Positions 1 to 12,619 of a stretch of 12,619 nt of DNA are shown piece after piece. The DNA is taken from IMG/VR virus record IMGVR_UViG_2695420600_000009, one strand, 5' to 3'. Source of the stretch: a virus (taxonomy: Duplodnaviria; Heunggongvirae; Uroviricota; Caudoviricetes). The stretch's first letter is position 1, and each line of letters opens with the position of its first letter. The notes under the pieces were generated by a model that saw nothing but the letters and a program-made list of their open reading frames with translations, was not told where the DNA came from and did not search any database. The translations under genes were made by a program, and so were the position numbers.

Positions 1-86
1 ATGCCAAACTGCGATCGATTCAGATGCCATTTTGCAATCAGCGCCAGAACAGCAGCTGACAGGCCGTATTTGATTTTTGCGCTCAT
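1..86 (-). CDS. probable endolysin (lysozyme R), N-terminal 28 codons only; gene continues past the left edge of the window
   Basis: Minus-strand ATG at 86..84 followed by MSAKIKYGLSAAVLALIAKWHLNRSQFG, a Gly/Ala/Leu-rich signal-anchor-like N-terminus. It lies directly after holin and DUF826 genes, as in the Qin-type lysis cassette essQ-ydfR-rrrQ. Absent from the ORF track because fewer than 60 codons are visible. Confidence 0.4.
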   Translation of the reverse strand, partial: MSAKIKYGLSAAVLALIAKWHLNRSQFG

Positions 87-141
87 GGATATTTATCAGG
101 ATGCTACCAATGAAAGATACTGGAAAGCCAACTGCAAAAAG

Positions 142-456
142 CTAACAACCCGTAATCGAGTTATCAGAACTGTTAATTTTTATGGTATACCGCGCCTCTG
201 AACAGGGGCGCGTTTCTGGCAACAGCTCGTCCCCTTCACATAACCCGGCAGCAACATCCAAGAAGACCTGTCTGATGCTCCTTCTGGCTGCTGCCTCATA
301 AAACTCCAGCGCGGCACCTTCAACACGGTCCAGCGAGATGTCCAGGTCAAAAATTTCACCGTCAAAGCGTTTTTTGTCCCGTAACGCTAAAGTTACCGTA
401 ACTTTATTCTCAAAATTGCGGATCCCTTTCACAATCAGTTCATAGTTTTGAGTCAT
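142..456 (-). CDS. DUF826 / YdfR-like small prophage protein
   Basis: 104-aa ORF. The N-terminal two thirds (MTQNYELIVKGIRNFENKVTVTLALRDKKRFDGEIFDLDISLDRVEGAALEFYEAAARRS) match my recollection of the YdfR/DUF826 family that sits between holin and lysozyme in Qin-like prophages. The SD (GGGGAGAG) lies in the last codons of the holin gene. The C-terminal third is not recognisable and contains a strong hairpin. Confidence 0.6.
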   Translation of the reverse strand: MTQNYELIVKGIRNFENKVTVTLALRDKKRFDGEIFDLDISLDRVEGAALEFYEAAARRSIRQVFLDVAAGLCEGDELLPETRPCSEARYTIKINSSDNSITGC

Positions 457-460
457 TGAA

Positions 461-676
461 TTACTCTCCCCGTGCAGCCTTACGACGGTCCTCTCTGATT
501 TTGAAATACAGGTTAGTCAGATATGTCAGCAGCCCAAACAGCAGACTCCCCAGCACGCCTATTGCCGCCCACTGAGACGGGGAAACCCTGTCCAGCAACT
601 GCAGGAACCAGTAGCCCGTTCCCACCGCTGACGTGGTGTATGACACACCTGTTGTGATTTTTTCCATCTGGTACAT
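461..676 (-). CDS. S: phage 21-type class II holin (S21-like), 71 aa with dual-start motif MYQM
   Basis: ORF track 461..754 trimmed to the internal ATG at 676. [71 protein letters not shown] closely resembles the phage 21 S holin as I recall it, including the two closely spaced Met starts, two TM segments and a charged C-terminus. SD GGGAGACGGGG directly upstream. Confidence 0.85.
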
Positions 677-711
677 ACCCCGTCTCCCGTTATCCGGAAG
701 CTGACAACAAT

Positions 712-741
712 AAAAAAAGCCACCAGTTAAGTACTGATGGC
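712..741 (-). terminator. intrinsic terminator-like hairpin between nanS-p and the holin gene
   Basis: On the minus strand GCCATCAG-TACTTAA-CTGGTGGC (8-bp stem, one mismatch) is followed by TTTTTTTATTG. Confidence 0.5.
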
Positions 742-826
742 TCTGATAACTCATGCAGGCATCTCAGACGACCCACTGACACTACCGGTGAGTTTAACGA
801 TACCTTCCATTTGGCTGGCTCACTTT

Positions 827-2680
827 TTATGATGATGCCGGTGCATTTATCTCCAGCACCAGACTTTCTATCTCAACGCCATACGCTGCATTTTTGGTAA
901 TATCCGTCAGCGTCAGCGCATTCAGCCCCAGTGTCAGACTGTCTTTTATGACCTGGAATGCCGGGCCAGCCACTCCATTCAGTTTCGGAGTAACCGTGGC
1001 ACTGCCGGCGGTGAACACCAGCTCCAGCGTCAGCCAGTCGTTACTGTAATTCCCGAACTCGCCCAACTTTGTGTTTCCTGCTTTCTTGTGATGCATCAGA
1101 TTCAGTTTGCCGTCTGTGGTCTGGGTGAAGAACGACATCAGGAACGGGTTACCAGTCCCGGTCATCGCCACGACGTCAGGTAACGCTACATCGGTATACA
1201 GATAAATTCCCAGACCGAACTGGTTGTTGGTCAGTGCGCCTGACAGTCGAAACTTACAGCTCAGTCTGCCACCCCGTGTCAGCAGGGAGACTGCGTCATC
1301 CACCGGGCGCGTCAGGGACCAGGCTTTATTGCTCTGCTTGGTGATCTTAAATACACCATCTGACAACTGAACTCCGCCATTCTTAATGCTCCAGCCCTGC
1401 GCAGCAGCGTCTCCGGCTGTCGGCAACAGGGAGATTGTGCGTATGGATGCATCTTCAGACGGCCCCGATGGCGTGTCGCCGCCGGGCGAGGGTTTGATTT
1501 CCGGTGCCTTACCACTAATGAAGGCTAAGGTGCGACCGGCTACGTTCAGAATAGCAGTTGCCATACGATCGGGAATAATGCCACGACGCGCCCATGAGCT
1601 GAAATGCGTCGGGCGATTTGATGATACCCAGTTTTTGTTCGTTCGGGATGCCGAACCGTAATAACCAGACCCGGCAATATCAGGATCTTCTGACGGGTTG
1701 TTTGTCGGTGTATTAACTCCGCTACCATCGGTCATAAAGGGAACAAAATAAATCTGCTGGGATTCTTTACCTTTATATGCACCATATACCACTTCATATT
1801 GCGTACCGTGTTCTTGTTTCCACGCGTATGTCGTGTCGCCACAAATCCAGGGGACTGATGCCGGACTTCCACCGTGACACTGCGCCGCCAGCCCGGCAAG
1901 GTCAGCACGGAACTGCTGTACCATTGCAAGAAATGCTGCTGGCTGCTGGGCGTAACTGGCATTCGTCATATCGAATTCCCCCTGCATCCAGCATATCGCC
2001 AGCAAAACGTTTTTCGGGTTTTTCTGCAATGCTGCCTTCGTGCGGAAAAGCAGATCCTGATATAACGGCTTACCCACTCCCCAGCGAGCCGAATCCTGAC
2101 TGGCCCCCGTGGACTCGCTGAATGTCCCCTCCGTGCCCTGGGTGAATGCCGAACCACCACAACAGCATGGTACCAGCAGGATCCCCGCATTATTAGGGAT
2201 ATACGGAAGCAGTTTTTTGGCAATATGTAAGCCCTGTCCGACACAGCCGTACTGCCCTTTGCTCAGGTCAGCCCGGGGATGGTTAATCGTACTCATATCC
2301 TGAACATCATGCAGACAATGGTCAGCAGGAATGATGTCGTTAAATACGCATACTTCACCACCGGGAGTCACTGTGTTACGACGGGCCAGTTGCTTAATGC
2401 GCGGATGGGGCGCATCGTATGAATCCGGAAGCGGAAGACCTTCACCGTAAGCCATGGCATTGGATTGCCCGGCCAGTACGATGACGTAGTACCACTCCGG
2501 CTCAGTTGCACCACTGACGACCACATCACCTTCTGCTGCAATCGCCTGCATCAGGGTATAAGGGGTTATGGCCACCGGACTACCAAACGGCTGCCAGCCC
2601 TCCTTCAGTTTTTGTGTCAGTCGTTTCGCAAGGTCTGACGGCGATGCCGCCCTGACCACGTCATAGTGTTTAAATGCCAT
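827..2680 (-). CDS. nanS: prophage sialate (9-O-acetyl-N-acetylneuraminate) O-acetylesterase, NanS-p / YjhS-like, with N-terminal DUF1737-like region
   Basis: 617-aa ORF with SD GGGAGGA upstream of the ATG at 2680. The N-terminus MAFKHYDVVRAASPSDLAKRL and the GQSN motif (VLAGQSNAMAYGEG) fit the SGNH/DUF303 esterase family that EHEC lambdoid prophages carry downstream of the stx position. Recognised from memory of the family, not searched. Confidence 0.8.
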   Translation of the reverse strand: MAFKHYDVVRAASPSDLAKRLTQKLKEGWQPFGSPVAITPYTLMQAIAAEGDVVVSGATEPEWYYVIVLAGQSNAMAYGEGLPLPDSYDAPHPRIKQLARRNTVTPGGEVCVFNDIIPADHCLHDVQDMSTINHPRADLSKGQYGCVGQGLHIAKKLLPYIPNNAGILLVPCCCGGSAFTQGTEGTFSESTGASQDSARWGVGKPLYQDLLFRTKAALQKNPKNVLLAICWMQGEFDMTNASYAQQPAAFLAMVQQFRADLAGLAAQCHGGSPASVPWICGDTTYAWKQEHGTQYEVVYGAYKGKESQQIYFVPFMTDGSGVNTPTNNPSEDPDIAGSGYYGSASRTNKNWVSSNRPTHFSSWARRGIIPDRMATAILNVAGRTLAFISGKAPEIKPSPGGDTPSGPSEDASIRTISLLPTAGDAAAQGWSIKNGGVQLSDGVFKITKQSNKAWSLTRPVDDAVSLLTRGGRLSCKFRLSGALTNNQFGLGIYLYTDVALPDVVAMTGTGNPFLMSFFTQTTDGKLNLMHHKKAGNTKLGEFGNYSNDWLTLELVFTAGSATVTPKLNGVAGPAFQVIKDSLTLGLNALTLTDITKNAAYGVEIESLVLEINAPASS

Positions 2681-2873
2681 GAATCCTCCCGGCCGGGATA
2701 ATATTGTGAGTAAAATAAGGAGCGGGCTGAAGTCCGGAAGTTACAGGACAATGGCAGAAGAGAGACGACAGCCCGCAATTCGAAAAAGACCGCGCAGTTG
2801 CGCAGAGTGATTACTATGGGGTATTATTCGCCAGCTGAAATATTACTTCACGTTTTATTGTTTATTCCTTGCC

Positions 2874-2902
2874 GCCCGCGTCTCCCAGCGCGGGCTTTTT
2901 TT
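2874..2902 (+). terminator. plus-strand intrinsic terminator-like hairpin inside repeat A (second copy at 4700..4728)
   Basis: GCCCGCG-TCTCCCAG-CGCGGGC followed by TTTTTTT on the plus strand. Confidence 0.5.
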
Positions 2903-2910
2903 GCCCACAA

Positions 2911-2931
2911 GAAAACCCCTCCGGAGAGGGG
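2911..2931 (-). terminator. minus-strand terminator-like hairpin T1 in repeat A (copy at 4737..4757; diverged sub-repeat version at 3397..3418)
   Basis: Minus strand CCCCTC-TCCG-GAGGGG followed by TTTTCTTG. Confidence 0.45.
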
Positions 2932-3179
2932 CTAAAGCCGCGTATCTGTATCATCATGCACATGGTGCCGGGTGCCTCCCGGTGAGTTCAGCCCGGTGCC
3001 ACTAAACCCGCGTCATTCTCGTTTTGATAATCAGAGATTATACCGTCACCAGTCGCCCCTCCGCTCAGGGGGATTCACCATGCGAAATTTTTTTAACAAA
3101 TGCCCAGTCTGACAGGCAACTGTCAACTTACTGAATTGTGAGCAACATAGCATTTAACGGGGAACCTGTTTTCTGCAGT

Positions 3180-3206
3180 AAAAAGGCCCACCGGAGCGGA
3201 TGGGCC
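3180..3206 (-). terminator. minus-strand terminator-like hairpin T2 in repeat A (copy at 5006..5032)
   Basis: Minus strand GGCCCA-TCCGCTCCGG-TGGGCC followed by TTTTTACTG. Confidence 0.45.
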
Positions 3207-3811
3207 TGGAAGGATAGCGGTCATGTGATGCCGGTTTCCCGGTAACTCAGCACCGGTATCTGAGTCAACGTTTTCTCTACTGGGTCATTTCCGATACGCC
3301 CTGCCTGCTGACAGGCTTTCATCACATCTGAAAATATAGCACCCTGACTGATACTGTAGTACCTAAGGTTCCAGAAACTGTGATGTATCCGGCACAGAAA
3401 AGCCCCTCCGGAGAGGGCTGGAGAGTGGCGCTATGTGCCATTGCATGATGCCGGGTGCCTCCCGGTGAATTCAGTACCAGCACCTGAATCCGCGATTATC
3501 CCATATACCTACTCGCTGATTGCCCCTCCGCACAGGGGGATTCACCATGCCAGTTTCTTTTAACAAACTCCCCGCAAACCAGACAACAGTCAACCGCCTG
3601 AATTGTGAAGTATTTAAAAATTTCTCCCGCTAACTGATACCCGGCTAACAGTCTGGCGTTTTCTTTTTCAGCAACGGGAAAGCAACAACCACCACACCCG
3701 CCACCAGCACACCGTCAGCCAGCACTGACATTATCCGGCTGCTGCAATGCCATTCACAAAAACAGTAAGCAATCACTTTTTACCGTAACAGGTGATAATC
3801 CAGATATGTAT

Positions 3812-4138
3812 CTACCCCAGATGAGTAATCCGAAGTTCATCCATACCACAGGTCCTGGCTATTCTGTTGTACTCCTGAACAAGAGCAAATAATTCTGAAT
3901 TAGCAACCATGAACTCATCGCAAACCCTCTGTATAGCATCACTATTCAGAATAATAACGTCTCTTCCCGAAAGACGATCAGGAGTACAGAACAAAACTGT
4001 CAAACGGCTGAAGGCCTTTGCTCGTGCTGCATTGACTATATCAATACGCTGCCTAAGGATGAAACACCCCGACGCCTCATCAATATTCACTCTACCCACA
4101 CCATATGAATGATAAATATTTAATGCTGAAAAAACCAT
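3812..4138 (-). CDS. hypothetical protein in AT-rich cargo segment (108 aa from first ATG; ORF track extends to a TTG at 4165)
   Basis: A 354-nt open frame in clearly AT-rich DNA, where stop codons are frequent, argues for real coding. It is on the late-transcribed strand. No convincing SD and no family I can recognise. An antisense 67-aa ORF (3909..4112) overlaps it. Confidence 0.35.
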   Translation of the reverse strand: MVFSALNIYHSYGVGRVNIDEASGCFILRQRIDIVNAARAKAFSRLTVLFCTPDRLSGRDVIILNSDAIQRVCDEFMVANSELFALVQEYNRIARTCGMDELRITHLG

Positions 4139-4275
4139 TAGACCGTATAACAAACACTCAATCAATACTTAACAGAACTTTTATTTTTGACAAACATAAA
4201 ATATTTTCAACAATATCCTGAGCCAGGTATATTTCAGTATAAGGCTCTGCCGGAAGGAATCTGGAAGAATGAATA

Positions 4276-4352
4276 TGGCGCGCTGTACTGGATTCGAACC
4301 AGTGACCGATTGCTTAGAAGGCAATTGCTCTGTCCGGCTGAGCTAACAACGC
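4276..4352 (-). tRNA. tRNA-Arg (anticodon TCT), cluster 1
   Basis: Reverse complement GCGTTGTTAGCTCAGCCGGACAGAGCAATTGCCTTCTAAGCAATCGGTCACTGGTTCGAATCCAGTACAGCGCGCCA folds as a 77-nt cloverleaf with anticodon loop CTTCTAA, T-loop TTCGAAT and encoded CCA. One G-U pair in the acceptor stem, where cluster 2 has A-U. Confidence 0.85.
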
Positions 4353-4365
4353 TGAATACCGATAA

Positions 4366-4445
4366 TGGACCGCCATCGGGGACCCGCCCCCGCACCAACA
4401 ACCCTGTTATCATGTCGTCTGCTCTTCCTGATAAGCTAATGGCGG
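4366..4445 (-). pseudogene. degenerate tRNA-like sequence (disrupted counterpart of tRNA-Arg TCG at 5572..5648)
   Basis: Acceptor stem, D-arm, 3' T-stem half and CCA match the cluster-2 tRNA. The anticodon arm, variable loop and 5' T-stem are replaced by AGACGACATGATAACAGGGTTGTTGGTGCGGGGGCGGGT, which does not form a cloverleaf. Confidence 0.6.
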
Positions 4446-4452
4446 TTTGTGA

Positions 4453-4528
4453 TGGTGGCCCTTGCTGGATTTGAACCAGCGACCTGGCGATTATGAGTCG
4501 CTCGCTCTCACCACTGAGCTAAAGGGCC
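4453..4528 (-). tRNA. tRNA with anticodon CAT (Ile2/lysidine-type or Met; ileZ-like), cluster 1
   Basis: Reverse complement GGCCCTTTAGCTCAGTGGTGAGAGCGAGCGACTCATAATCGCCAGGTCGCTGGTTCAAATCCAGCAAGGGCCACCA; 76-nt cloverleaf with anticodon loop CTCATAA. Stx-type phages carry ileZ-argN-argO at this position. Confidence 0.85.
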
Positions 4529-4567
4529 GGGAGCAGAATAATAACGGTCCGTAATTAATTCCGCAAT

Positions 4568-4681
4568 AAAAAACCCGCTCGGCGGCGGGTTGTAGAAACT
4601 CTTCTAACGTCAGGCATAAAACGCCCATAGTTATGACGAATTTACCACAGATTCCGGAAAAATCAACCTAGTTACCTTTTT
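4568..4681 (-). repeat. repeat B copy 1: duplicated Q 3' tail plus terminator module (remnant; second copy 7299..7413 is attached to the intact Q gene)
   Basis: About 114 bp identical, bar one or two bases, to 7299..7413. It encodes the last ~17 codons of Q (KVTRLIFPESVVNSS stop) followed by the terminator hairpin at 4568..4591, with no upstream Q coding sequence. An N at 4682 marks the junction with repeat A copy 2. Confidence 0.8.
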
Positions 4682-4682
4682 N

Positions 4683-5450
4683 ATTGTTTATTCCTTGCCG
4701 CCCGCGTCTCCCAGCGCGGGCTTTTTTTGCCCACAAGAAAACCCCTCCGGAGAGGGGCTAAAGCCGCGTATCTGTATCATCATGCACATGGTGCCGGGTG
4801 CCTCCCGGTGAGTTCAGCCCGGTGCCACTAAACCCGCGTCATTCTCGTTTTGATAATCAGAGATTATACCGTCACCAGTCGCCCCTCCGCTCAGGGGGAT
4901 TCACCATGCGAAATTTTTTTAACAAATGCCCAGTCTGACAGGCAACTGTCAACTTACTGAATTGTGAGCAACATAGCATTTAACGGGGAACCTGTTTTCT
5001 GCAGTAAAAAGGCCCACCGGAGCGGATGGGCCTGGAAGGATAGCGGTCATGTGATGCCGGTTTCCCGGTAACTCAGCACCGGTATCTGAGTCAACGTTTT
5101 CTCTACTGGGTCATTTCCGATACGCCCTGCCTGCTGACAGGCTTTCATCACATCTGAAAATATAGCACCCTGACTGATACTGTAGTACCTAAGGTTCCAG
5201 AAACTGTGATGTATCCGGCACAGAAAAGCCCCTCCGGAGAGGGCTGGAGAGTGGCGCTATGTGCCATTGCATGATGCCGGGTGCCTCCCGGTGAATTCAG
5301 TACCAGCACCTGAATCCGCGATTATCCCATATACCTACTCGCTGATTGCCCCTCCGCACAGGGGGATTCACCATGCCAGTTTCTTTTAACAAACTCCCCG
5401 CAAAACAGACAACTGTCAACCGTCTGAATTGTGAGACATTTAAAAAAAAG
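4683..5450. repeat. repeat A copy 2 (see 2853..3620)
   Basis: Near-identical to copy 1 over ~770 bp. ORF-track entries 5297..5530 and 5346..5552 in this region run into the tRNA genes and are rejected. Confidence 0.9.
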
Positions 5451-5481
5451 GCCCGCAAAAGCGAGCCAGGGAAAATAAGTG

Positions 5482-5558
5482 TGGCGCGTTGTACTGGATT
5501 CGAACCAGTGACCGATTGCTTAGAAGGCAATTGCTCTGTCCGGCTGAGCTAACAACGC
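5482..5558 (-). tRNA. tRNA-Arg (anticodon TCT), cluster 2
   Basis: Same 77-nt sequence as 4276..4352 except an A-U instead of G-U pair in the acceptor stem. Confidence 0.9.
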
Positions 5559-5571
5559 ATGATGCAGATAA

Positions 5572-5648
5572 TGGACCGCCATCGGGGACTTGAACCCCGC
5601 GCAGCCAGCTTCGAAGGCTGGCGCTCTTTCCTGATGAGCTAATGGCGG
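5572..5648 (-). tRNA. tRNA-Arg (anticodon TCG by my reading of the loop CTTCGAA), cluster 2
   Basis: Reverse complement CCGCCATTAGCTCATCAGGAAAGAGCGCCAGCCTTCGAAGCTGGCTGCGCGGGGTTCAAGTCCCCGATGGCGGTCCA; 7-bp acceptor stem, D-stem GCTC/GAGC, anticodon stem CCAGC/GCTGG, T-loop TTCAAGT, CCA end. Confidence 0.75.
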
Positions 5649-5655
5649 TATGTGA

Positions 5656-5731
5656 TGGTGGCCCTTGCTGGATTTGAACCAGCGACCTGGCGATTATGAG
5701 TCGCTCGCTCTCACCACTGAGCTAAAGGGCC
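5656..5731 (-). tRNA. tRNA with anticodon CAT (Ile2/Met; ileZ-like), cluster 2
   Basis: Identical to 4453..4528. The ~35 bp upstream of it are also conserved between the two clusters. Confidence 0.9.
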
Positions 5732-5771
5732 GGGAGCCGCATAATAACGACGCGTAATTAATTCTTCAATA

Positions 5772-6830
5772 TCATCCGTTCTGGCTGACTAAATCCTGTA
5801 CTTCCCGAACCGTCTGCTCAAAACGTTCAGTCTCCAGCTCAACGCCAATTGCACGACGCCCGAGCGCCAGTGCCGCTTTCACTGTCGAACCCAACCCCAT
5901 GAAAAAATCTGCAATCAGGTCACCCGGACGACTGCTAGCGCTGATTATCTGCTGCAGCATTTCTGCCGGTTTTTCGCACGGATGTTTCCCGGGATAGAAC
6001 TGCACCGGTTTATGCGTCCACACATCGGTATACGGCACCTGCACCGTCACGCCAAAATACCGCCGCAGATGTTTATATTCACTCAGCAGCTCCGCATACT
6101 GCCGGTTCAGTGAGGTATACGTATCCACCAGCTGGTGGTGGAGCTTTTCCAGTTCACCACGCCGATGCTTCTCTTCTGCCACCCGGGCAAACAGCGCCTG
6201 TAATTTCAGATAATCGCTTTCATTCGGCAACTGCCACTGACCGGCACTGAACCAGTGCGACACCATGTTTTTCTTTCCTGTGGCATCTGCAATCTGTTTT
6301 GCCGTTATCCCCAGGGCAGCTCGCGCATCACGAAAGTAAGAAATCAGCGGGGCCATCACATGCTGTTTCAGTGCACTGCCCTTCGCCGCATACCCGGCAT
6401 CTTTCGGACGATACGGCCCCTGATAATGTTCCGCGAACAGAATGCGCTCTGTGGCGGGGAAATACGCCCGCAGGCTTTCCTTGTTGCATCCGTTCCAGCG
6501 TCCGGACGGCTTCGCCCAGATAATATGGTTCAGCACACTGAAGCGTTCACGCATCATGATTTCGATATCAGATGCCAGGCGATGACCACAGAACAGGTAA
6601 AGACTTCCGGCAGGTTTCAGCACCCGCCAGAACTGCGCCAGACACTGGTCCAGCCACTTCAGGTAATCATCGTCGCCCTTCCACTGGTTATCCCAGCCCT
6701 CAGGCTTCACTTTAAAGTACGGCGGGTCCGTGACTATCAGGTCAACAGAATTTTCGGGTAACGACCGGATAAATTCCAGGCAGTCGGCGTTGATTAACTC
6801 ACAACTGGATATTTTTACAGTATTAAGCAT
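5772..6830 (-). CDS. DNA methyltransferase, beta-class amino-MTase (N6-adenine or N4-cytosine), orphan (no adjacent endonuclease gene)
   Basis: 352-aa ORF with catalytic motif DPPY near the N-terminus (LIVTDPPYF) and a SAM-binding FxGxG-like motif near the C-terminus (DFFMGLGST). This motif order is typical of beta-class MTases. Sits between Q and the tRNA cluster. Confidence 0.85.
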   Translation of the reverse strand: MLNTVKISSCELINADCLEFIRSLPENSVDLIVTDPPYFKVKPEGWDNQWKGDDDYLKWLDQCLAQFWRVLKPAGSLYLFCGHRLASDIEIMMRERFSVLNHIIWAKPSGRWNGCNKESLRAYFPATERILFAEHYQGPYRPKDAGYAAKGSALKQHVMAPLISYFRDARAALGITAKQIADATGKKNMVSHWFSAGQWQLPNESDYLKLQALFARVAEEKHRRGELEKLHHQLVDTYTSLNRQYAELLSEYKHLRRYFGVTVQVPYTDVWTHKPVQFYPGKHPCEKPAEMLQQIISASSRPGDLIADFFMGLGSTVKAALALGRRAIGVELETERFEQTVREVQDLVSQNG

Positions 6831-6965
6831 GGATCATTAAGCCTGTCTCTGATAGGCTCATTCTGCTTTTGCGCAAAGCAGTGGGCCTGAGGTTTGCTTG
6901 TGAACCCAACGCATGAGCAGATGGCTGGTGGGTGCCCCTAACACCCACCAGCCGCCCATTTACCA

Positions 6966-6994
6966 CAAATAAAAAAGCCTTCACTGCGGAAGGC
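6966..6994 (-). terminator. intrinsic terminator-like hairpin at the 3' end of the small winged-helix gene
   Basis: Minus strand GCCTTC-CGCAGT-GAAGGC followed by TTTTTTATTTG; the stem overlaps the stop codon at 6981..6983. Confidence 0.55.
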
Positions 6995-7178
6995 GTCTGT
7001 AACAACCGAACTGATAGTCTGCCAGACCCGCCATAACCAGCTGGGTCAGTATTAACTGGCAGCGTTCGCGTGAAAGGTAAGTATTCTGCGCTATCTCCCC
7101 GACTGTCGCCGGTTCGGTAACGCTTAATTCATTAAACACCACTCTGGCGGTTTCTGTCATATCCTGCTGTTTTAGCAT
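6981..7178 (-). CDS. small winged-helix-like DNA-binding protein (65 aa), hypothetical
   Basis: Good SD (AAGGA) 7 nt upstream of the ATG at 7178. The segment TVGEIAQNTYLSRERCQLILTQLVMAGL has the helix-turn-helix plus recognition-helix pattern of wHTH regulators. Family assignment is inference. Confidence 0.55.
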   Translation of the reverse strand: MLKQQDMTETARVVFNELSVTEPATVGEIAQNTYLSRERCQLILTQLVMAGLADYQFGCYRRLPQ

Positions 7179-7298
7179 GTCTTTTCCTTTTCCGGTTAAC
7201 GTGACACACCAATAACTCTTGTCGAAAAAGCCAGCAAGCTGAAAGACAGGTATTCACCGCCACCAGCGCGTTTACTGTACTGACGCGATTTCAGTCAT

Positions 7299-7322
7299 AA
7301 AAAACCCGCTCGGCGGCGGGTT
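7299..7322 (-). terminator. intrinsic terminator immediately downstream of Q (candidate tR')
   Basis: Minus strand CCCGC-CGCCGA-GCGGG followed by TTTTTTAT, ~40 nt after the Q stop codon. Duplicated at 4568..4591. Confidence 0.6.
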
Positions 7323-7361
7323 GTAGAAACTCTTCTAACGTCAGGCATAAAACGCCCATCG

Positions 7362-8216
7362 TTATGACGAATTTACCACAGATTCCGGAAAAATCAACCT
7401 AGTTACCTTTTTTAACTGCCGCTCAGCCCATGCTTCTTCAATATCAAACCGGGTCACCAGCGCATCATAGAATTTCTTAACTGTTTTTTCCCATGACGCG
7501 CGTGTTATCTGGTTTGTCACCTCGCATATAGCATTAAATGCCTCCGTTGATGGTAGTCTTTCATAGCCACGACCACCACAACGCTGGCAGTCTCTGATAA
7601 CAGGCATACCACGTTTTACCGACTCTTCACGATGAATGGCGACACCACGCCCACGGCAATCCTTACAGGCGGTGGAAACCTCACCCTTTCCGCCACACTC
7701 CGGACAGGCAACTTTTACCACCTCCCTGACTTTTTTCCATTCTTCCCAGTAAGACGGATACACACCTTTCGTACACTTTGCCCATACCGGCGGCTTACCA
7801 TCCGGATACTGGATCTTGTTTGTAAAAACCTCGCTTTCAATAAATTTTTTTCCGTGACAGCAGGGGCACTGTTTTTTGCTCGCCGCGCTACGGGCATAAT
7901 CTTCAAACGCATACGAAGCCATAATACGCATCACTGCCGGTTTTATTTCTGCCGGGAGTTTTCTTAACGCCGCCACGCGATCACACCGACTGAGTGCATA
8001 TTCTGTCAGCAATTCTGTTGCCCGCTCTCTGTCATTCATACTAATGCCCATTTTCCCAAGGAACGCAGAAACCCCCATCTCAGCCCGATTCTGTGTCATG
8101 CCCTGCGCGGCCATCACATCAGTGATACTCAGCGCATCTTTCGACGTTGAGGCCGATGCATCAGTCAGGCCGGGGGATTTTGGGGAGTAGTATTTCGGTA
8201 AATCTTCCAGTTTCAT
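7362..8216 (-). CDS. Q: Q-family late-gene antiterminator with four CxxCxG(xG) zinc-finger-like motifs
   Basis: 284-aa ORF in the canonical position: downstream of rusA with ATGA start/stop overlap, upstream of terminator, tRNAs and lysis genes. The N-terminal region resembles Qin-type Q (quuQ-like) proteins as I recall them. Cys motifs CPCCHGKK, CPECGGKG, CKDCRGRG, CQRCGGRG. Confidence 0.7.
   Translation of the reverse strand: MKLEDLPKYYSPKSPGLTDASASTSKDALSITDVMAAQGMTQNRAEMGVSAFLGKMGISMNDRERATELLTEYALSRCDRVAALRKLPAEIKPAVMRIMASYAFEDYARSAASKKQCPCCHGKKFIESEVFTNKIQYPDGKPPVWAKCTKGVYPSYWEEWKKVREVVKVACPECGGKGEVSTACKDCRGRGVAIHREESVKRGMPVIRDCQRCGGRGYERLPSTEAFNAICEVTNQITRASWEKTVKKFYDALVTRFDIEEAWAERQLKKVTRLIFPESVVNSS
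7370..7397 (-). promoter_or_regulatory. candidate late promoter pR' overlapping the last codons of Q
   Basis: Minus strand TTGATT (-35), 16-bp spacer, TAAATT (-10), located just upstream of the terminator at 7299..7322. Hexamer match only; no experimental support. Same motifs in repeat B copy 1 at 4639..4666. Confidence 0.3.
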
Positions 8217-8593
8217 TTTTTGACCTGCTCTTCATGCATTATGGGGTAAATCTTCACCCCCAGACGTCCACCAGATACTGGCTGACCACGAACGATATTG
8301 ATTTCATCAAACTGCTCATCGTCCATTAGCAACCCCGCATGCGTCAGCGCATCCAGCGGCGCTTTCAGAATATTGTCCAGGTCACGGCGGCGCTTATCCG
8401 GTGGTTCTGCAATAATTTTTATTGCCAACCTTCCGGACAGGCTTAATTTCAGCCGCTGCTGGCGAACAATAAGCGCCACTGCCCGGCGATAACGCTCCCC
8501 GGCTTTTGATACAAAATATGTGCTGCCACGACGACGCCAGTAAGTGTTCACCGTCGGCGGGTAAGGTAAAACAAATTCTATGCGCTCGGTCAT
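8213..8593 (-). CDS. rusA: RusA-family Holliday junction resolvase
   Basis: 126-aa ORF with the family signature region PDKRRRDLDNILKAPLDALTHAGLLMDDEQ and N-terminal LPYPPTVNTYWR. Stop overlaps the Q start (ATGA); start abuts the stop of the upstream gene. Confidence 0.85.
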   Translation of the reverse strand: MTERIEFVLPYPPTVNTYWRRRGSTYFVSKAGERYRRAVALIVRQQRLKLSLSGRLAIKIIAEPPDKRRRDLDNILKAPLDALTHAGLLMDDEQFDEINIVRGQPVSGGRLGVKIYPIMHEEQVKK

Positions 8594-9652
8594 TTATGCT
8601 TTCCACTTCAGAACACCCGAATTTCTCGCGTGCATTAAAAAACGAATCAGCAACAACAGCTGACTGCCGTGTTTCTCTTCAAAATCTTTTACTCCGGCAT
8701 GTAGTTCGTTACGGCATTTACGGCATAACGGAATAACAAACAAATCATCAGCCTTTGTTCCCATCCCTCCCAGTCCATGACCAATGATGTGATGCGGATC
8801 ATCTGCCTGATTGCCACACGTCATGCATTTCTGCGTTTTTACCCAGCGCGTGTATACAGGCATCTCTTCCCGTTGTGATTTCTGGCGCTGGAGATACTGA
8901 GCCGGTGACTCCGGATCAACGGCAATGCTGACCACCGTCTTTTCCTGTGGTGGGTTCTGTTGCTGGTGGACGTGAGGCAGTAACGCAATATTTTTTGTGC
9001 GCTGCTTCAGTATGCTGGTGGCTGTCTGCTCTCCCGGTATGATGTCGCTTTCACTGTACACAGAGCGAATTTTTTCCGCACGCAACCCCAGCGAACGACG
9101 TAATACCGCTTCCGGTAGCGCGTCCGCCACCTGATTGCGGACCGCCCACCAGGATAATTCAGCCAGAGATAATTCACGCTCCTGCGTACCGCTTATTGCG
9201 TGACCGATGACGTCAATCATCCATGCTGACAGGTTTTGATGAGCAAGTTGCTCGAGTGATTCGGATGTCTGGTCACGCAGCTGGTTGTCGCAGTGCCAGC
9301 ACAACACCATTGCGCCGGTACCATAACGGTGAATGACGGTTTCGCTGTGATGATAATCGCCGTGTGGCCACTGGCAGGATTTAATATGGCGCAACAGCCA
9401 GTCAGACAATGCACCAGCACCACCAGCAGCACGAATCACCCGTGCGTTACTGAAAAACGGCAGCAATGTTTTGTCTTCCACCAGCGGCTGGCGAGCGGCA
9501 GGAACGACCCCGGACGGCAGATTACGCATGCTTTTTGGTTCCGGCTCCACCAGTATTCTGCCGTTATGGAATGCTGACATTGATTCACGGCCTGGCTTAA
9601 CGATAACCAGACCGAGTTCCGGTACCAGAACAGGTCGAAGTAATACCCGCAC
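8594..9652 (-). CDS. DUF968 / YdfU-like prophage protein with C-terminal HNH-like Cys/His cluster
   Basis: 352-aa ORF. GTG start at 9652 is preceded by GGAGG with 4-nt spacing; an alternative ATG lies at 9580. C-terminal CMTCGNQADDPHHIIGH...CRKCRNELH resembles an HNH/zinc-finger nuclease motif. DUF968 assignment is from gene position and size by analogy with Qin ydfU. Confidence 0.55.
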   Translation of the reverse strand: MRVLLRPVLVPELGLVIVKPGRESMSAFHNGRILVEPEPKSMRNLPSGVVPAARQPLVEDKTLLPFFSNARVIRAAGGAGALSDWLLRHIKSCQWPHGDYHHSETVIHRYGTGAMVLCWHCDNQLRDQTSESLEQLAHQNLSAWMIDVIGHAISGTQERELSLAELSWWAVRNQVADALPEAVLRRSLGLRAEKIRSVYSESDIIPGEQTATSILKQRTKNIALLPHVHQQQNPPQEKTVVSIAVDPESPAQYLQRQKSQREEMPVYTRWVKTQKCMTCGNQADDPHHIIGHGLGGMGTKADDLFVIPLCRKCRNELHAGVKDFEEKHGSQLLLLIRFLMHARNSGVLKWKA

Positions 9653-9653
9653 A

Positions 9654-9932
9654 TTACCTCCAGATCCGTTGCTGGAATGTGCGGGACGGACGCGTTGGCC
9701 GTTCGGAGTAAGGGAGCCTGACGGAGATTATCCAGTGACGGTAGTCGAGGCTAAGGGCTTTTTTAACCTCGCATCCGCGCCTGCGGTAACACTGAATGAG
9801 CCATTCGGCCTGTTCTTCAGTGCATGGGGGATGCTGGTACCAATCAGATTTAAATGCGTGAGAGCGCCGCCCGTGCCTGCTGGCAAAGACGGCTGAATTA
9901 TCAGAATTGTGTAGTCTGGAATTTTGCGCCAT
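9654..9932 (-). CDS. hypothetical prophage protein (92 aa)
   Basis: ATG at 9932 with SD GGAGAAAG. The same RBS-plus-start context is duplicated at 10628. No family recognised. Confidence 0.45.
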   Translation of the reverse strand: MAQNSRLHNSDNSAVFASRHGRRSHAFKSDWYQHPPCTEEQAEWLIQCYRRRGCEVKKALSLDYRHWIISVRLPYSERPTRPSRTFQQRIWR

Positions 9933-9998
9933 CGGCTTTCTCCGGTGGCACAGTGTTACTCAACAGGGGTTCAGCCCTGCGCTGAATTGTAGATGAAT

Positions 9999-10259
9999 TC
10001 ACTCATCTTCAAAAGCAGAAAAACCAGCCTTAATCCCAGCTTCTTTCAGAGACGGCAACGATGTGACAAATTCATTTGCACGCGAAATAAAACCATCCGT
10101 CACAAGCCCATCCACAAAATGAATTAACGCAGCTCCACTCTTCCTTTGTTGAGACTGTAAACATTTAATACGGCAGTGGCTGACAATAGCGCCATTCTCA
10201 ACGCGCACAGTATAGAGGCCATCTTCACTAAAAATTTCACGTAATTCTTCGATTTTCAT
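9999..10259 (-). CDS. hypothetical protein, paralog 1 of a tandemly duplicated gene (86 aa from ATG; track shows a TTG one codon upstream)
   Basis: MKIEELREIFSEDGLYTVRVENGAIVSHCRIKCLQSQQRKSGA is ~85% identical over the first ~75 residues to the ORF at 10667..10954. SD GGAAGGA. Family not recognised. Confidence 0.6.
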   Translation of the reverse strand: MKIEELREIFSEDGLYTVRVENGAIVSHCRIKCLQSQQRKSGAALIHFVDGLVTDGFISRANEFVTSLPSLKEAGIKAGFSAFEDE

Positions 10260-10343
10260 CAACAGAATCCTTCCAGATAAATAGCACTCCCCTGTTCGGG
10301 GTCCATCCCTCTTCTCCCTGCGCGCTACTTAAGTGAGTCGATT

Positions 10344-10374
10344 NNNNNNNNNNNNNNNNNNNNNNNNNNNNNNN
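10344..10374. other. assembly gap (31 N)
   Basis: Run of N in the sequence. It interrupts the gene starting at 10628 and the upstream region of paralog 1. Confidence 1.
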
Positions 10375-10628
10375 CACAGGTAATCAACGAAACCGGACAC
10401 CAGTTTTCGTTCGCGAGGCGTGATCGCCCCACCGACCGGAGTCCAGTAATCGAAACCCAGTTGCAGGAGTTTGAAAAAACGCTTGTGGAATGCGTAGTTA
10501 CACACACGCTTAAAGTCTGCGTGTATCCACTCACCTATTTTGATTTGATGCAGAAAATCGCAACTCTCCGGCGTCGCCGGGAGAAGTAATCCGGAAGAGG
10601 TTTGTTTGACCAGTTGTATATGTGCCAT
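10375..10628 (-). CDS. hypothetical prophage protein, 3' end lost in the gap
   Basis: ATG at 10628 in the same duplicated RBS context as 9932; MAHIQLVKQTSSGLLLPATPESCDFLHQIKIGEWIHADFKRVCNYAFHKRFFKLLQLGFDYWTPVGGAITPRERKLVSGFVDYL, then N. The track ORF 10329..10670 reads through the Ns. Confidence 0.45.
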
Positions 10629-10666
10629 CGGCTTTCTCCGGTGGCACGGTGTTACACAGCAGGAGT

Positions 10667-10954
10667 TCAATCCTGCTCAAGATTGTAGATGAGTTTATTC
10701 TTCAGCAAAAGCAGAAAACCAGCCTTAAAACCAATCTCTTTCAAAACCCGTAATGATGTGACAAATTCGTCCTCACGCAAAATAAAACCGTCCGTCAGAA
10801 GTCCATTACAAAAATAAAATAACACAGCACCGCTCTTCCTTTGTTGAGATTGCAAACATCTAATGCGGCAATGGCTGACAATCGCTCCATTCTCAACGCG
10901 CACAGCATAGAGGCCATTTTCACTAAAAATTTCACGCAATTCTTCGATTTTCAT
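10667..10954 (-). CDS. hypothetical protein, paralog 2 of the tandemly duplicated gene (95 aa)
   Basis: ATG at 10954 with SD GGAAGGA. Upstream on the minus strand is TTGATT-16 bp-TAGAAT, a plausible sigma-70 promoter. The C-terminus diverges from paralog 1 after KAGF. Confidence 0.6.
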   Translation of the reverse strand: MKIEELREIFSENGLYAVRVENGAIVSHCRIRCLQSQQRKSGAVLFYFCNGLLTDGFILREDEFVTSLRVLKEIGFKAGFLLLLKNKLIYNLEQD

Positions 10955-11077
10955 CTTCAGAATCCTTCCAGATAAATAGCTCTCCCCTGTTCGGGGTCCA
11001 TCCCTCTTCTCCCTGCGCGCTACTTAAGTGAGTCGATTCTATCTGCGAAGGTGCGCGAATCAAATTCACCGGAAATA

Positions 11078-11126
11078 AACAACAAAAAACCCGCCGAAAC
11101 GCTGAGAGATCACAGCGATGGGCGGG
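11078..11126 (-). terminator. terminator-like stem-loop after the truncated hok copy
   Basis: Minus strand CCCGCC ... GGCGGG stem enclosing an inner CGCTG/CAGCG stem, followed by TTTTTTGTTGTTTATTT. Confidence 0.45.
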
Positions 11127-11203
11127 TTAAGTGCGGGTGCGTTGAGGATGCCTGACACATCAGAGGTGGGCGGGGATGGGATCAGCTCCCCGCCCGGTCA
11201 CTC

Positions 11204-11303
11204 TTACTTCCTGGATTCGTAGTCTACGAAGACAGCGACCTCCGTCTGGCCGGTTCGGATTCGTACCTCACAGAGGTCTTTCCTCGTTACCAGTGCCGTC
11301 ACT
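11204..11303 (-). pseudogene. truncated hok copy (3' ~33 codons plus 3' UTR), tandem to the intact gene
   Basis: Minus strand reads ...TRKDLCEVRIRTGQTEVAVFVDYESRK stop, homologous to the C-terminal half of the hok ORF at 11421..11576. The copy begins at an N (11304) directly after the intact gene's terminator. The 3' UTR (11127..11203) is homologous to 11353..11420. Confidence 0.7.
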
Positions 11304-11319
11304 NAACTTCAAACGCGTT

Positions 11320-11351
11320 GAAAATAAAAACAAAAACCCGCCGAAGCGGGT
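11320..11351 (-). terminator. intrinsic terminator of the hok transcript
   Basis: Minus strand CCCGC-TTCGG-GCGGG followed by TTTTTGTTTTTATTTTC, ~70-100 nt downstream of the hok stop. Confidence 0.6.
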
Positions 11352-11420
11352 TAAGTGTGGGTGCATTGAGGATGCCTGACCCATCAGAGGTGGCGAGGGA
11401 TTTCTCCCCCGCCTGGTCTC

Positions 11421-11576
11421 TTACTCCTCAGGTTCGTAAGCTGTGAAGACAGCGACCTCCGTCTGGCCGGTTCGAATTCGTACCTCGCAGAGGTCTTTCC
11501 TCGTTACCAGTGCCGTCACTATGACGGTTAAACAGATGACGATCAGGGCGATTAACATCGCCTTTTGCTGCTTCAT
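11421..11576 (-). CDS. hokD: Hok/Gef-family type I toxin (51 aa), HokD/RelF-like
   Basis: MKQQKAMLIALIVICLTVIVTALVTRKDLCEVRIRTGQTEVAVFTAYEPEE matches the HokD (RelF) sequence as I recall it. SD GGAGAAGCAGG upstream. The track ORF (11421..11633) also contains an in-frame upstream ATG with its own SD (mok-like leader). No relBE genes precede it here. Confidence 0.9.
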   Translation of the reverse strand: MKQQKAMLIALIVICLTVIVTALVTRKDLCEVRIRTGQTEVAVFTAYEPEE

Positions 11577-11867
11577 AGCCTGCTTCTCCTTGCCTTTCGG
11601 CACGTAAGAGGCTAACCTAGATTTGCCGTTCATAGATTGAGCCTCAGATTAATGTTAAGCGTCTTGCCGGACGCGTAATGTTAACTGGGGCTTTTCTCTA
11701 TCTGCCTTTTGGTGTTCATGCCTGAGACAGATAGCCTCAAGCACCCGCTGCAATTCTACTTAACTCTCCTTTTCCCGCAAACCGTTTTTATCCCCAGCGG
11801 CAAATCGAATACACCACCAGCGCCACCGCCATCGCAATTCCTACCGTTGTTAATGCTTCAGGCCAGG

Positions 11868-12212
11868 TCATCGTAAAATATCCTCCACGCTTATCAGTCC
11901 GTTCCGCTCCAGATAACTCATCGCCTTATCCGGTAATTTGCAGTCTGGCTTCGCTTTTCTCAGTTGCCAGGTTAACTGCTTTACCAGCATGGTTAACTCA
12001 TCGACCAGACGCTGATATCCCACTGGTTTGTATTCATGCAATTTACCGGCTGGCTCTGCTGCCAGCGATACCAGTGCGATTTCCAGAACAGCAATATCCA
12101 TCTTATATGTGCGGATGATGTCATGGTCGATTGTGCCCGGTATGCACAGTCTCTGTGCTTCAATAGTCTCCTCTGCGTGAGCTATTAACTGCTCTCTGGT
12201 AAAAGTCGTCAT
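11868..12212 (-). CDS. hypothetical protein (114 aa)
   Basis: Start overlaps the stop of the upstream 55-aa gene (ATGA). Shares the motif IAL-x-SL-x-AEP with that gene. Family not recognised. Confidence 0.5.
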
Positions 12213-12376
12213 GCCGTAGCCCCTTCTTGATATTTTTCAAACCAGAACACAACCGGCTCTGCTTCCAGCGATGCCAGCGCAATCCGTGCCAGTTCCATTT
12301 GTTCACCACGGGTAAGCCCGTTTTCAAGCGGGTTTTTAATGAACAATTCAATACGTTCTTTGGTAATAGTGGTCAT
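12209..12376 (-). CDS. hypothetical small protein (55 aa), not in the ORF track (<60 aa)
   Basis: Strong SD AAGGAG 7 nt upstream of the ATG at 12376. Translation [55 protein letters not shown]. Stop overlaps the next start. Confidence 0.5.
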
Positions 12377-12386
12377 GTGTTACTCC

Positions 12387-12617
12387 TTAACCCGCAGTGC
12401 TTTCAACTGATGAGGGGAACAAAATCTTTTCATCAAACCCTGCATTCATATCATGAACAGCAACACACCAATCCATCGACGAACGATTATCAAGAGCCTC
12501 CATGATTTCATCCATGCGGCGTAGGTCATACAGGTAAATGCTTTTATCGCCAATGGTGTAAAAGCCAATTTTTTTCGGTGATGGATGAGGTGTACTGGCA
12601 ATAGCGGACACTACCAT
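12387..12617 (-). CDS. hypothetical protein (76 aa if the ATG at 12617 is the true start; may be partial)
   Basis: ORF begins 2 nt from the right edge of the window, so the real N-terminus cannot be judged. Its stop TAA is embedded in the SD of the next gene (TAAGGAG). Confidence 0.4.
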   Translation of the reverse strand: MVVSAIASTPHPSPKKIGFYTIGDKSIYLYDLRRMDEIMEALDNRSSMDWCVAVHDMNAGFDEKILFPSSVESTAG

Positions 12618-12619
12618 TT

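Follow-up and report, generated by a model that had tools for sequence, protein, structure and literature searches.

The Hfq-crosslinked small RNA EcOnc27 of strain Sakai, described in EDL933 as sRNA103, is encoded just downstream of stx2B, where it forms a convergent dyad with the anti-sRNA AsxR. At least eight Sakai prophages have such dyads at the moron site, between PR' and the lysis genes (PMC4104026, PMC7873438). EcOnc27 overlaps the STnc100 annotation (PMC12711010). EDL933 carries 11 copies, most of which are transcribed and one of which has been verified by Northern blot (PMC5331693), and STnc100 has been found in outer membrane vesicles of Shiga toxin-producing E. coli (PMC12370729). 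Effects of sRNA103 on fimZ and espA are cited in PMC7873438; the targets of the family are still poorly defined. Arrays of STnc100/EcOnc27 genes and their convergent partners at the moron site between Q and the lysis genes have thus already been described.

PasD1 and PasD2 of enteropathogenic E. coli (EPEC) are abundant, Hfq-stabilised RNAs with many RIL-seq partners (bioRxiv 10.64898/2026.05.13.724894; PMC8550237), and the stability of PasD depends on Hfq (PMC8550237). They are reported to be related to STnc100 by structural homology, with a sequence similarity too low for BLAST (bioRxiv 10.64898/2026.05.13.724894). By published description, the PasD genes of EPEC E2348/69 are, like the locus studied here, prophage-borne, intergenic and near Q, with PasD2 upstream of a sialate esterase gene. 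In contrast to the tandem genes that we describe below, the PasD copies are distal to each other (>1.5 Mb apart on average) and come from separate phages.

Here, we analysed a 12,619-nt stretch of virus DNA (IMG/VR record IMGVR_UViG_2695420600_000009), referred to as the window. The window is the late region of a lambdoid prophage with all genes on the minus strand. The order of the main prophage is Q, a 65-aa ORF, a DNA methylase gene, three tRNA genes, a non-coding block, nanS-p, and a P21-type holin gene with DUF1327. In the sequence as given, the block occurs twice, with a foreign cassette between its copies. The main features are as follows.

827-2680, minus strand: nanS-p, encoding a SASA/DUF1737 esterase
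2853-3620: block copy 1, an sRNA array between nanS-p and the next cassette
3621-4565, minus strand: foreign cassette between the block copies, from a second prophage locus
3645-3776, minus strand: DUF3927 gene in the cassette
3812-4165, minus strand: orf117 in the cassette, without annotation
4276-4352, minus strand: tRNA-Arg(TCT) in the cassette
4453-4528, minus strand: tRNA with anticodon CAT in the cassette, annotated as tRNA-Ile in RefSeq
4566-4681, minus strand: 3' fragment of Q (last 16 codons and stop), followed by a tR'-like terminator at 4591-4572
4679-5446: block copy 2, with the same STnc100 units on the minus strand and a 5'-truncated plus-strand element
5482-5731, minus strand: tRNA cluster of the main prophage (CAT anticodon/Ile2, Arg-TCG, Arg-TCT)
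5772-6830, minus strand: DNA methylase gene of the main prophage
7362-8216, minus strand: antiterminator gene Q of the main prophage

As with STnc100, EcOnc27 and sRNA103 elsewhere, the block follows the Q/tRNA/moron site and precedes nanS-p and the lysis genes. Orientation along the late operon, Rho-independent terminators and multiple copies in prophage-rich genomes are likewise shared. The Stx2a phage Stx2_95 shares this order (methylase, tRNA(CAT)/Arg/Arg, [stx2AB], STnc100, nanS-p, holin); it differs in that inserted stx2AB genes separate the tRNA genes from STnc100, and in that it carries one unit where the window has three. In the prophage locus of the window, stx genes are absent and the block directly follows the tRNA genes. 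The array thus departs from STnc100 elsewhere in having three tandem units, one of them degenerate, and no stx upstream. The proposal that the block is a conserved stx- or nanS-p-flanking element is borne out by Stx2_95, where STnc100 lies between stx2B and nanS-p.

Repeat search, MAFFT alignment and ungapped comparison placed the two 768-nt copies at a constant offset of 1826. The first-pass annotation had set the second interval at 4683..5450; that copy exists, and its right end had been drawn 4 nt too far. Positions 2857-3578 and 4683-5404 are 100% identical over 722 nt, and the copies differ at six positions in all (3579, 3588, 3597 and 3609-3611). The sequences flanking the two copies are unrelated to each other. 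A simple 1826-bp tandem duplication was ruled out by the differing sequence after each copy (the DUF3927 cassette versus the three tRNA genes and the methylase gene).

The block had been taken as non-coding, and we agree: it contains no ORF longer than 53 aa, and RefSeq annotates only a pseudo-fragment within it, which rules out a protein-coding block. A terminator scan returned 10 terminator-like sites, compared to 1.1 expected from shuffled sequences, and recovered all four hairpins that had been claimed. These are one on the plus strand (2874-2895, T-run to 2902) and three on the minus strand (2933-2914, 3207-3184 and 3419-3401).

Searches against Rfam identified the block as a known STnc100-type sRNA gene cluster, located between the tRNA genes and nanS-p of Stx-like prophages. 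Each block contains three tandem units of the STnc100 family (RF02076; gathering score 47 bits, covariance model of 206 positions) on the minus strand, in the order b, degenerate c, a. The units run in the direction of the late operon, and each ends in its own intrinsic terminator.

2903-3112 and 4729-4938, minus strand: unit a, RF02076 at 161 bits, E = 6.5e-37 (copy 1), terminator hairpin 2933-2914
3178-3351 and 5004-5177, minus strand: unit c, RF02076 at 30.1 bits, E = 8e-4, terminator hairpin 3207-3184
3390-3579 and 5216-5405, minus strand: unit b, RF02076 at 122.5 and 123.6 bits, terminator hairpin 3419-3401
2834-2902, plus strand: candidate short convergent sRNA; its 5' part is unstructured and A/U-rich, followed by a GC hairpin (2874-2895) and a U7 tail

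Units a and b of both copies cover model positions 1-206 of 206 and score above the gathering score. Unit c falls below it, yet it can be aligned with units a and b and retains its own terminator; we therefore regard it as a degenerate relative and not as a family member by the Rfam rule. As the three minus-strand hairpins end STnc100-family units, they represent the terminators of three tandem sRNA units. The RNA-encoding role that had been suggested for the block is thereby supported. The STnc100 gene of Sp5, an Stx2 phage of Sakai, scores 207.7 bits, and the window units score lower because their internal segment differs.

Structural conservation was examined with RNAalifold on 10 copies from the window, E. 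coli 042, the Stx2a phage and two other phages. The consensus comprises 43 predicted pairs, four of which show compensatory changes on both sides, a covariation support that is modest since the copies are closely related. Almost every pair is kept in the closing stem, in hairpins 1-3 and in the terminator; conservation reaches 96-97% in the closing stem and in hairpin 1, and hairpin 2 contains compensatory changes. Single-sequence folding of units a and b was no better than that of shuffled sequences (z = -1.3 and -1.2). As this measure is uninformative for GC-rich sequence such as theirs, we rely on the covariance model and the alignment. Units a and b are 76-96% identical to each other in the scaffold, 32% in the internal segment and 15% in the pre-terminator linker. 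This suggests that the two may be paralogues that carry different recognition sequences, and hence targets, on a common scaffold.

An invariant TTTGTTAAAA motif lies 8-9 nt upstream of the closing stem, from which each unit may have its own promoter. A promoter scan of the minus strand found no canonical sigma-70 promoters for the units. By eye, a TTGCCT/TTGTCT-18-TGtTAAAAA arrangement can be seen, which we mention as a suggestion only.

On the opposite strand, the 3' end of the plus-strand element (2902) meets the end of unit a (2903) back-to-back. The 40 nt upstream of its hairpin are A/U-rich and unstructured, and the fold of the element has a z of -2.9. A start at 2834 is inferred from a TATTAT -10-like hexamer at 2822-2827. 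Given the convergent geometry and the A/U-rich unstructured 5' part, the plus-strand hairpin and U7 tail most likely terminate, judged from sequence, a short convergent RNA that takes the position of AsxR. The AsxR/EcOnc27 and AgvB/EcOnc06 dyads show the same back-to-back convergence with an STnc100-type gene at the moron site; in Sakai Sp5 (L009), cmscan places STnc100 at 4423-4628 (+) and AsxR at 4682-4630 (-), convergent and 2 nt apart. AsxR also shares the layout of an unstructured A/U-rich 5' part, a terminator hairpin and a U-tail. In sequence, however, the partner in the window resembles neither AsxR nor AgvB. Despite the shared position, cmscan gave no match to AsxR (RF02703) or AgvB (RF02702) at E <= 10 in 2760-2960 (201 nt), which rules out both identities, while equal search settings recovered AsxR at 88 bits in Sakai Sp5 as a positive control. 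The only Rfam match of the element was a weak one to OmrA-B (25 bits). Conservation of the element extends to its left flank in all 16 natural loci in which the element is present: both are identical in 15, among them the Stx2a phage Stx2_95, and carry a few substitutions in phage PhiR5_2.

The block is widespread. At least 80% of it is present in 353 of 5,426 complete E. coli genomes and some part of it in 2,728 of them, with up to 12 places per genome matching the block. The tandem a-c-b array occurs in hundreds of finished genomes, and the full block is present at 99.3% identity as a single copy in UTI89, S88, 042, ATCC 11775 and others. At least one unit was found in 267 phage records, mostly of Stx-converting phages. 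Tandem pairs of units about 480 nt apart occur in 042, UTI89, strain 2D and the phages PhiR5_2 and vB_EcoS-733R4.

While these results identify the block, they leave the question of why it appears twice. Ns are present at 4682 (single), 10344-10374 (31 Ns) and 11304 (single), so that the window is a scaffolded draft. The pieces relevant here are listed below.

1-4681: contig 1
4682: N join of contig 1 to contig 2, three bases inside the left edge of block copy 2
4683-10343: contig 2
10375-11303: contig 3, 929 nt, paralogous

The segment directly preceding each N site has a paralogue in the contig that follows: 4566-4681 corresponds to 7297-7412 (99.1%), 9925-10343 to 10621-11038 (86%) and 11122-11303 to 11346-11520 (86%). 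Three exact coincidences of this kind in 12.6 kb are not due to chance, and we conclude that contigs which overlap homologously were laid end to end.

Relatives were searched with the exact nanS-p protein, which returned four complete genomes and several drafts. The complete genomes CP032523.1, HE616528.1 (which we take to be Shigella sonnei 53G), CP061367.1 and CP029794.1 (L010-L013) contain the same prophage at 99.7-100% identity with one block. Compared to HE616528.1 (L011), window positions 1-3620 are 99.8% identical, 4678-10334 are 99.7% and 11305-12619 are 100% identical, and 1-3578 and 4683-7400 each match without any difference. Both copies of the block fall on one 768-nt block at L011 7061-7828 and therefore represent the same reference DNA; the only differences between 1-3620 and HE616528.1 are the six positions at which copies 1 and 2 disagree. 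Complete E. coli genomes seemed to cover 98% of 2700-5800, which turned out to be a single block used twice by the aligner.

In the four finished genomes, the single block sits between nanS-p and the three-tRNA cluster and adjoins both. The two contexts that had been assigned to separate copies, one next to nanS-p and one next to a tRNA cluster, are thus the two sides of one block. The cassette at 3621-4565 is absent from the main prophage locus of all four. It matches a prophage remnant in CP049175.1 (L029), with 99.7% identity over about 3579-4681 and one mismatch over 3449-4681. There, the order is RusA, Q, terminator, two tRNA genes, orf117, DUF3927 and unit b; next come a PmrD-like gene, a truncated DUF1737 and an IS. 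As the window matches the main prophage up to 3578 and L029 from 3449, contig 1 switches loci within the shared 130-nt stretch 3449-3578, as is seen in chimeras of scaffolded drafts.

In natural loci (strain 2D, L004, and CP049175.1), 4566-4681 runs on into Q and not into the block. The left flank of copy 2 is unique among the 17 copies examined, while 16 of 16 natural loci have the flank of copy 1. The junction of the Q 3' end, N and block is not contiguous in any of the 5,426 complete E. coli genomes, and the junction pattern had no match in 185,579 species-representative genomes, IMG/VR and JGI metagenomes. The last SNP that separates the paralogues lies 52 nt before the end of contig 1, which is consistent with a de Bruijn graph of k = 53 and not a test of it. 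Farther along the window, 10344-11304 is demonstrably a second scaffolding error: contig 3 is an 81% paralogue of HE616528.1 1920-2571, and the segment replaces about 20-29 nt of the reference, with 10334 matching L011 2165 and 11305 matching L011 2135.

Together, these comparisons suggest that the duplication of the block is most probably an assembly artefact and not biology, and a known sRNA locus with a second copy from draft misassembly is the explanation that we consider likely. Contig 1 would follow the main prophage up to unit b, switch within 3449-3578 to the cassette of the second prophage remnant and stop in the 3' end of its Q. Contig 2 would be the true continuation of the main prophage, starting with the block again, and the scaffolder would have chained the two with one N. 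Bubble linearisation, gap-closing or reference-guided ordering may have been the route of the error. Ns at paralogue boundaries, homologous contig overlap and a 100% identical duplicated core are all features of scaffolded short-read drafts. A true tandem structure would equally break contigs at the repeat edges, which counts against this explanation. The two near-identical copies first reported are thus present in the sequence as given, while copy 2 is not confirmed as separate DNA 1.8 kb away, considering the N at 4682 and the single reference block. The proposal that the copies flank the first tRNA cluster and cargo as substrates for RecA-mediated deletion or amplification rests on an adjacency created by the N-bridged join, and we do not uphold it. 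An assembly duplication had been anticipated as the finding that would undo the repeat, and, as far as finished genomes can tell, there is a single copy.

Two other accounts of the repeat were considered. Both copies could be real and reside in two lambdoid prophages, one 53G-like (methylase, three tRNAs, block, nanS-p) and one strain-2D-like (Q, two tRNAs, orf117, DUF3927, block, nanS-p), whose contigs were wrongly chained, so that there would be no 1.8-kb-spaced repeat. The N-bridged join and the paralogue chaining fit this equally well, and genomes have up to 12 places matching the block. Moreover, the arrangement of contig 1 is natural in E. coli strains 2D and Eco_23-3511, with 2D collinear with 205-4677 at 99.1%; since such prophages exist, two real arrays that were merely chained are conceivable. 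We nevertheless regard this as unlikely, because contig 1 agrees at 100% with the single-block reference as far as 3578 and from there at 99.9% with L029, which has only unit b before its PmrD-like gene. This is the mark that a switch within a repeat common to both loci leaves, whereas an independent 2D-like prophage reaches only 99.1%, and over their 722-nt cores the two copies do not differ. Less probable still is a genuine tandem, in which a recombinant prophage would have gained a second moron cassette (tR' fragment, two tRNAs, orf117, DUF3927) between two arrays. The given sequence does display this arrangement, T-runs at both ends of the join (TTTTT / TTTT) could have served as microhomology, and the draft FTVJ01000050.1 (L014) has a duplication of unit b, tRNA and methylase in the region. 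Against it stand the N exactly at the junction, the paralogue chaining at both other N sites, one of them demonstrably wrong, and the absence of the junction from every collection searched. Furthermore, only one block is present in each of the four finished genomes that carry the identical prophage, and a 768-bp direct repeat of 99% identity 1.8 kb apart would be unstable.

With regard to function, the hairpins could mainly be a terminator stack that insulates nanS-p and the lysis genes in the lysogen against read-through from the promoters of tRNA or moron genes or from the basal PR' transcript, with the sRNAs as by-products. The stretch of about 700 nt that immediately precedes nanS-p and the holin gene contains four minus-strand terminators, and their location between PR'/Q and the lysis genes is kept in all loci examined. 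Q-dependent antitermination is known from lambda biology to override such terminators. Conservation, however, extends well past the terminator hairpins, with a closing stem and hairpin 1 that hardly vary and compensatory changes in hairpin 2. Discrete RNAs of the family also accumulate in Hfq-bound form and have many RIL-seq partners (PMC4104026, PMC8550237, PMC5331693). We therefore find it rather doubtful that insulation is the main role, although the two functions are not exclusive, and the terminator stack may in addition protect nanS-p and the lysis genes from read-through until Q-modified polymerase overcomes it.

By analogy with EcOnc27/sRNA103 and PasD1/2, the STnc100 units of the window would act as sRNA genes, transcribed from their own promoters in the lysogen. 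Their products would be Hfq-binding sRNAs of about 170-210 nt that base pair in trans; expression, Hfq dependence and targets of the window copies are all predicted from these relatives. The paralogues would keep the stem scaffold, while the internal segment and the pre-terminator linker vary and may direct them to different targets. After induction, Q-modified RNA polymerase would pass the terminators and transcribe on into nanS-p and the lysis genes, and the short convergent plus-strand RNA would end back-to-back with unit a.

As a known sRNA locus plus a misassembly, the repeat adds little to the biology of these prophages. It does serve as a warning that the direct repeats in the window, and probably elsewhere in this assembly, coincide with N-bridged joins and should not be taken for rearrangements. 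Were the tandem true after all, sRNA dosage would be doubled, four to six sRNA genes and five tRNA genes would lie upstream of nanS-p, and the highly recombinogenic 768-bp repeat could switch the cassette in and out. The anatomy of the array, with a shared scaffold and divergent internal and linker segments, provides a testable hint that the units may differ in target specificity. In addition, the plus-strand dyad partner, which has no Rfam family match and is identical in an Stx2a phage, is a candidate for anti-sRNA activity.

The segment at window positions 10344-11304 is a second scaffolding error, and it is composed as follows:

10344-11304: 31 Ns, a 929-nt contig and a single N

The inserted contig shares only 81% identity with the reference locus, and finished genomes have about 20-29 nt in place of the entire segment. 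Because of this error, the window displays apparent direct repeats at 9925-10343/10621-11038 and 11122-11303/11346-11520.

At window position 7401, within the last codons of the antiterminator gene Q, 8 nt (TGTTACCT) are missing relative to HE616528.1, a finished genome carrying the main prophage. The missing bases make up a single unit of a short sequence repeated in direct orientation. CP049175.1, which carries the second locus, has the shorter form, as does contig 1 where it ends. The difference is due either to slippage or to the two loci having been mixed, of which it would be a further sign. Separately, in a draft assembly (FTVJ01000050.1, 1883-7828) the series of sRNA unit b, tRNAs and methylase is present twice, with a PmrD-like gene adjoining each copy; this duplication is either a real recombinant of two unit-b-bearing loci or an assembly confusion of the same kind.

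Further features were located in the window:

2790-2805, minus strand: additional terminator-like hairpin, CTGCGCAACTGCGCGG followed by TCTTTTT
2834-2902, plus strand: short convergent RNA candidate, in the AsxR/AgvB (anti-sRNA) position of the sRNA dyad
3178-3351 and 5004-5177, minus strand: third STnc100-like unit (c), degenerate, between units a and b
3812-4165, minus strand: 117-aa ORF whose start codon is TTG, located in AT-rich sequence with DUF3927 on one side and tRNAs on the other
4453-4528 and 5656-5731, minus strand: tRNAs with anticodon CAT, tRNA-Met according to ARAGORN
11421-11746, minus strand: hok/sok type I toxin-antitoxin module, comprising a sok match and a Hok-family ORF

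The 117-aa ORF had no match in Pfam and carries no RefSeq annotation in E. coli strains 2D and Eco_23-3511, and may not be a gene. RefSeq annotates the two CAT tRNAs as tRNA-Ile (ileZ-type, lysidine-modified), in agreement with the ileZ-argN-argO cluster of Stx phages. In the hok/sok module, which lies upstream of the DUF968, RusA and Q genes, sok (11571-11746) scored 112 bits and the Hok-family ORF (11421-11633) encodes 70 aa.

Unit c retains an intact terminator but scores only 30 bits against the STnc100 model; it could be either a paralogue in decay or an sRNA that has diverged. The additional hairpin lies outside the repeated block, between the sRNA array and the nanS-p start codon. For the convergent RNA candidate, no Rfam family reached its gathering score (top match OmrA-B, 25 bits); its sequence is the same in the Stx2a phage Stx2_95, E. 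coli 042 and UTI89, and the 53G-like genomes that carry this prophage. The candidate could be an uncurated gene of the anti-sRNA type.
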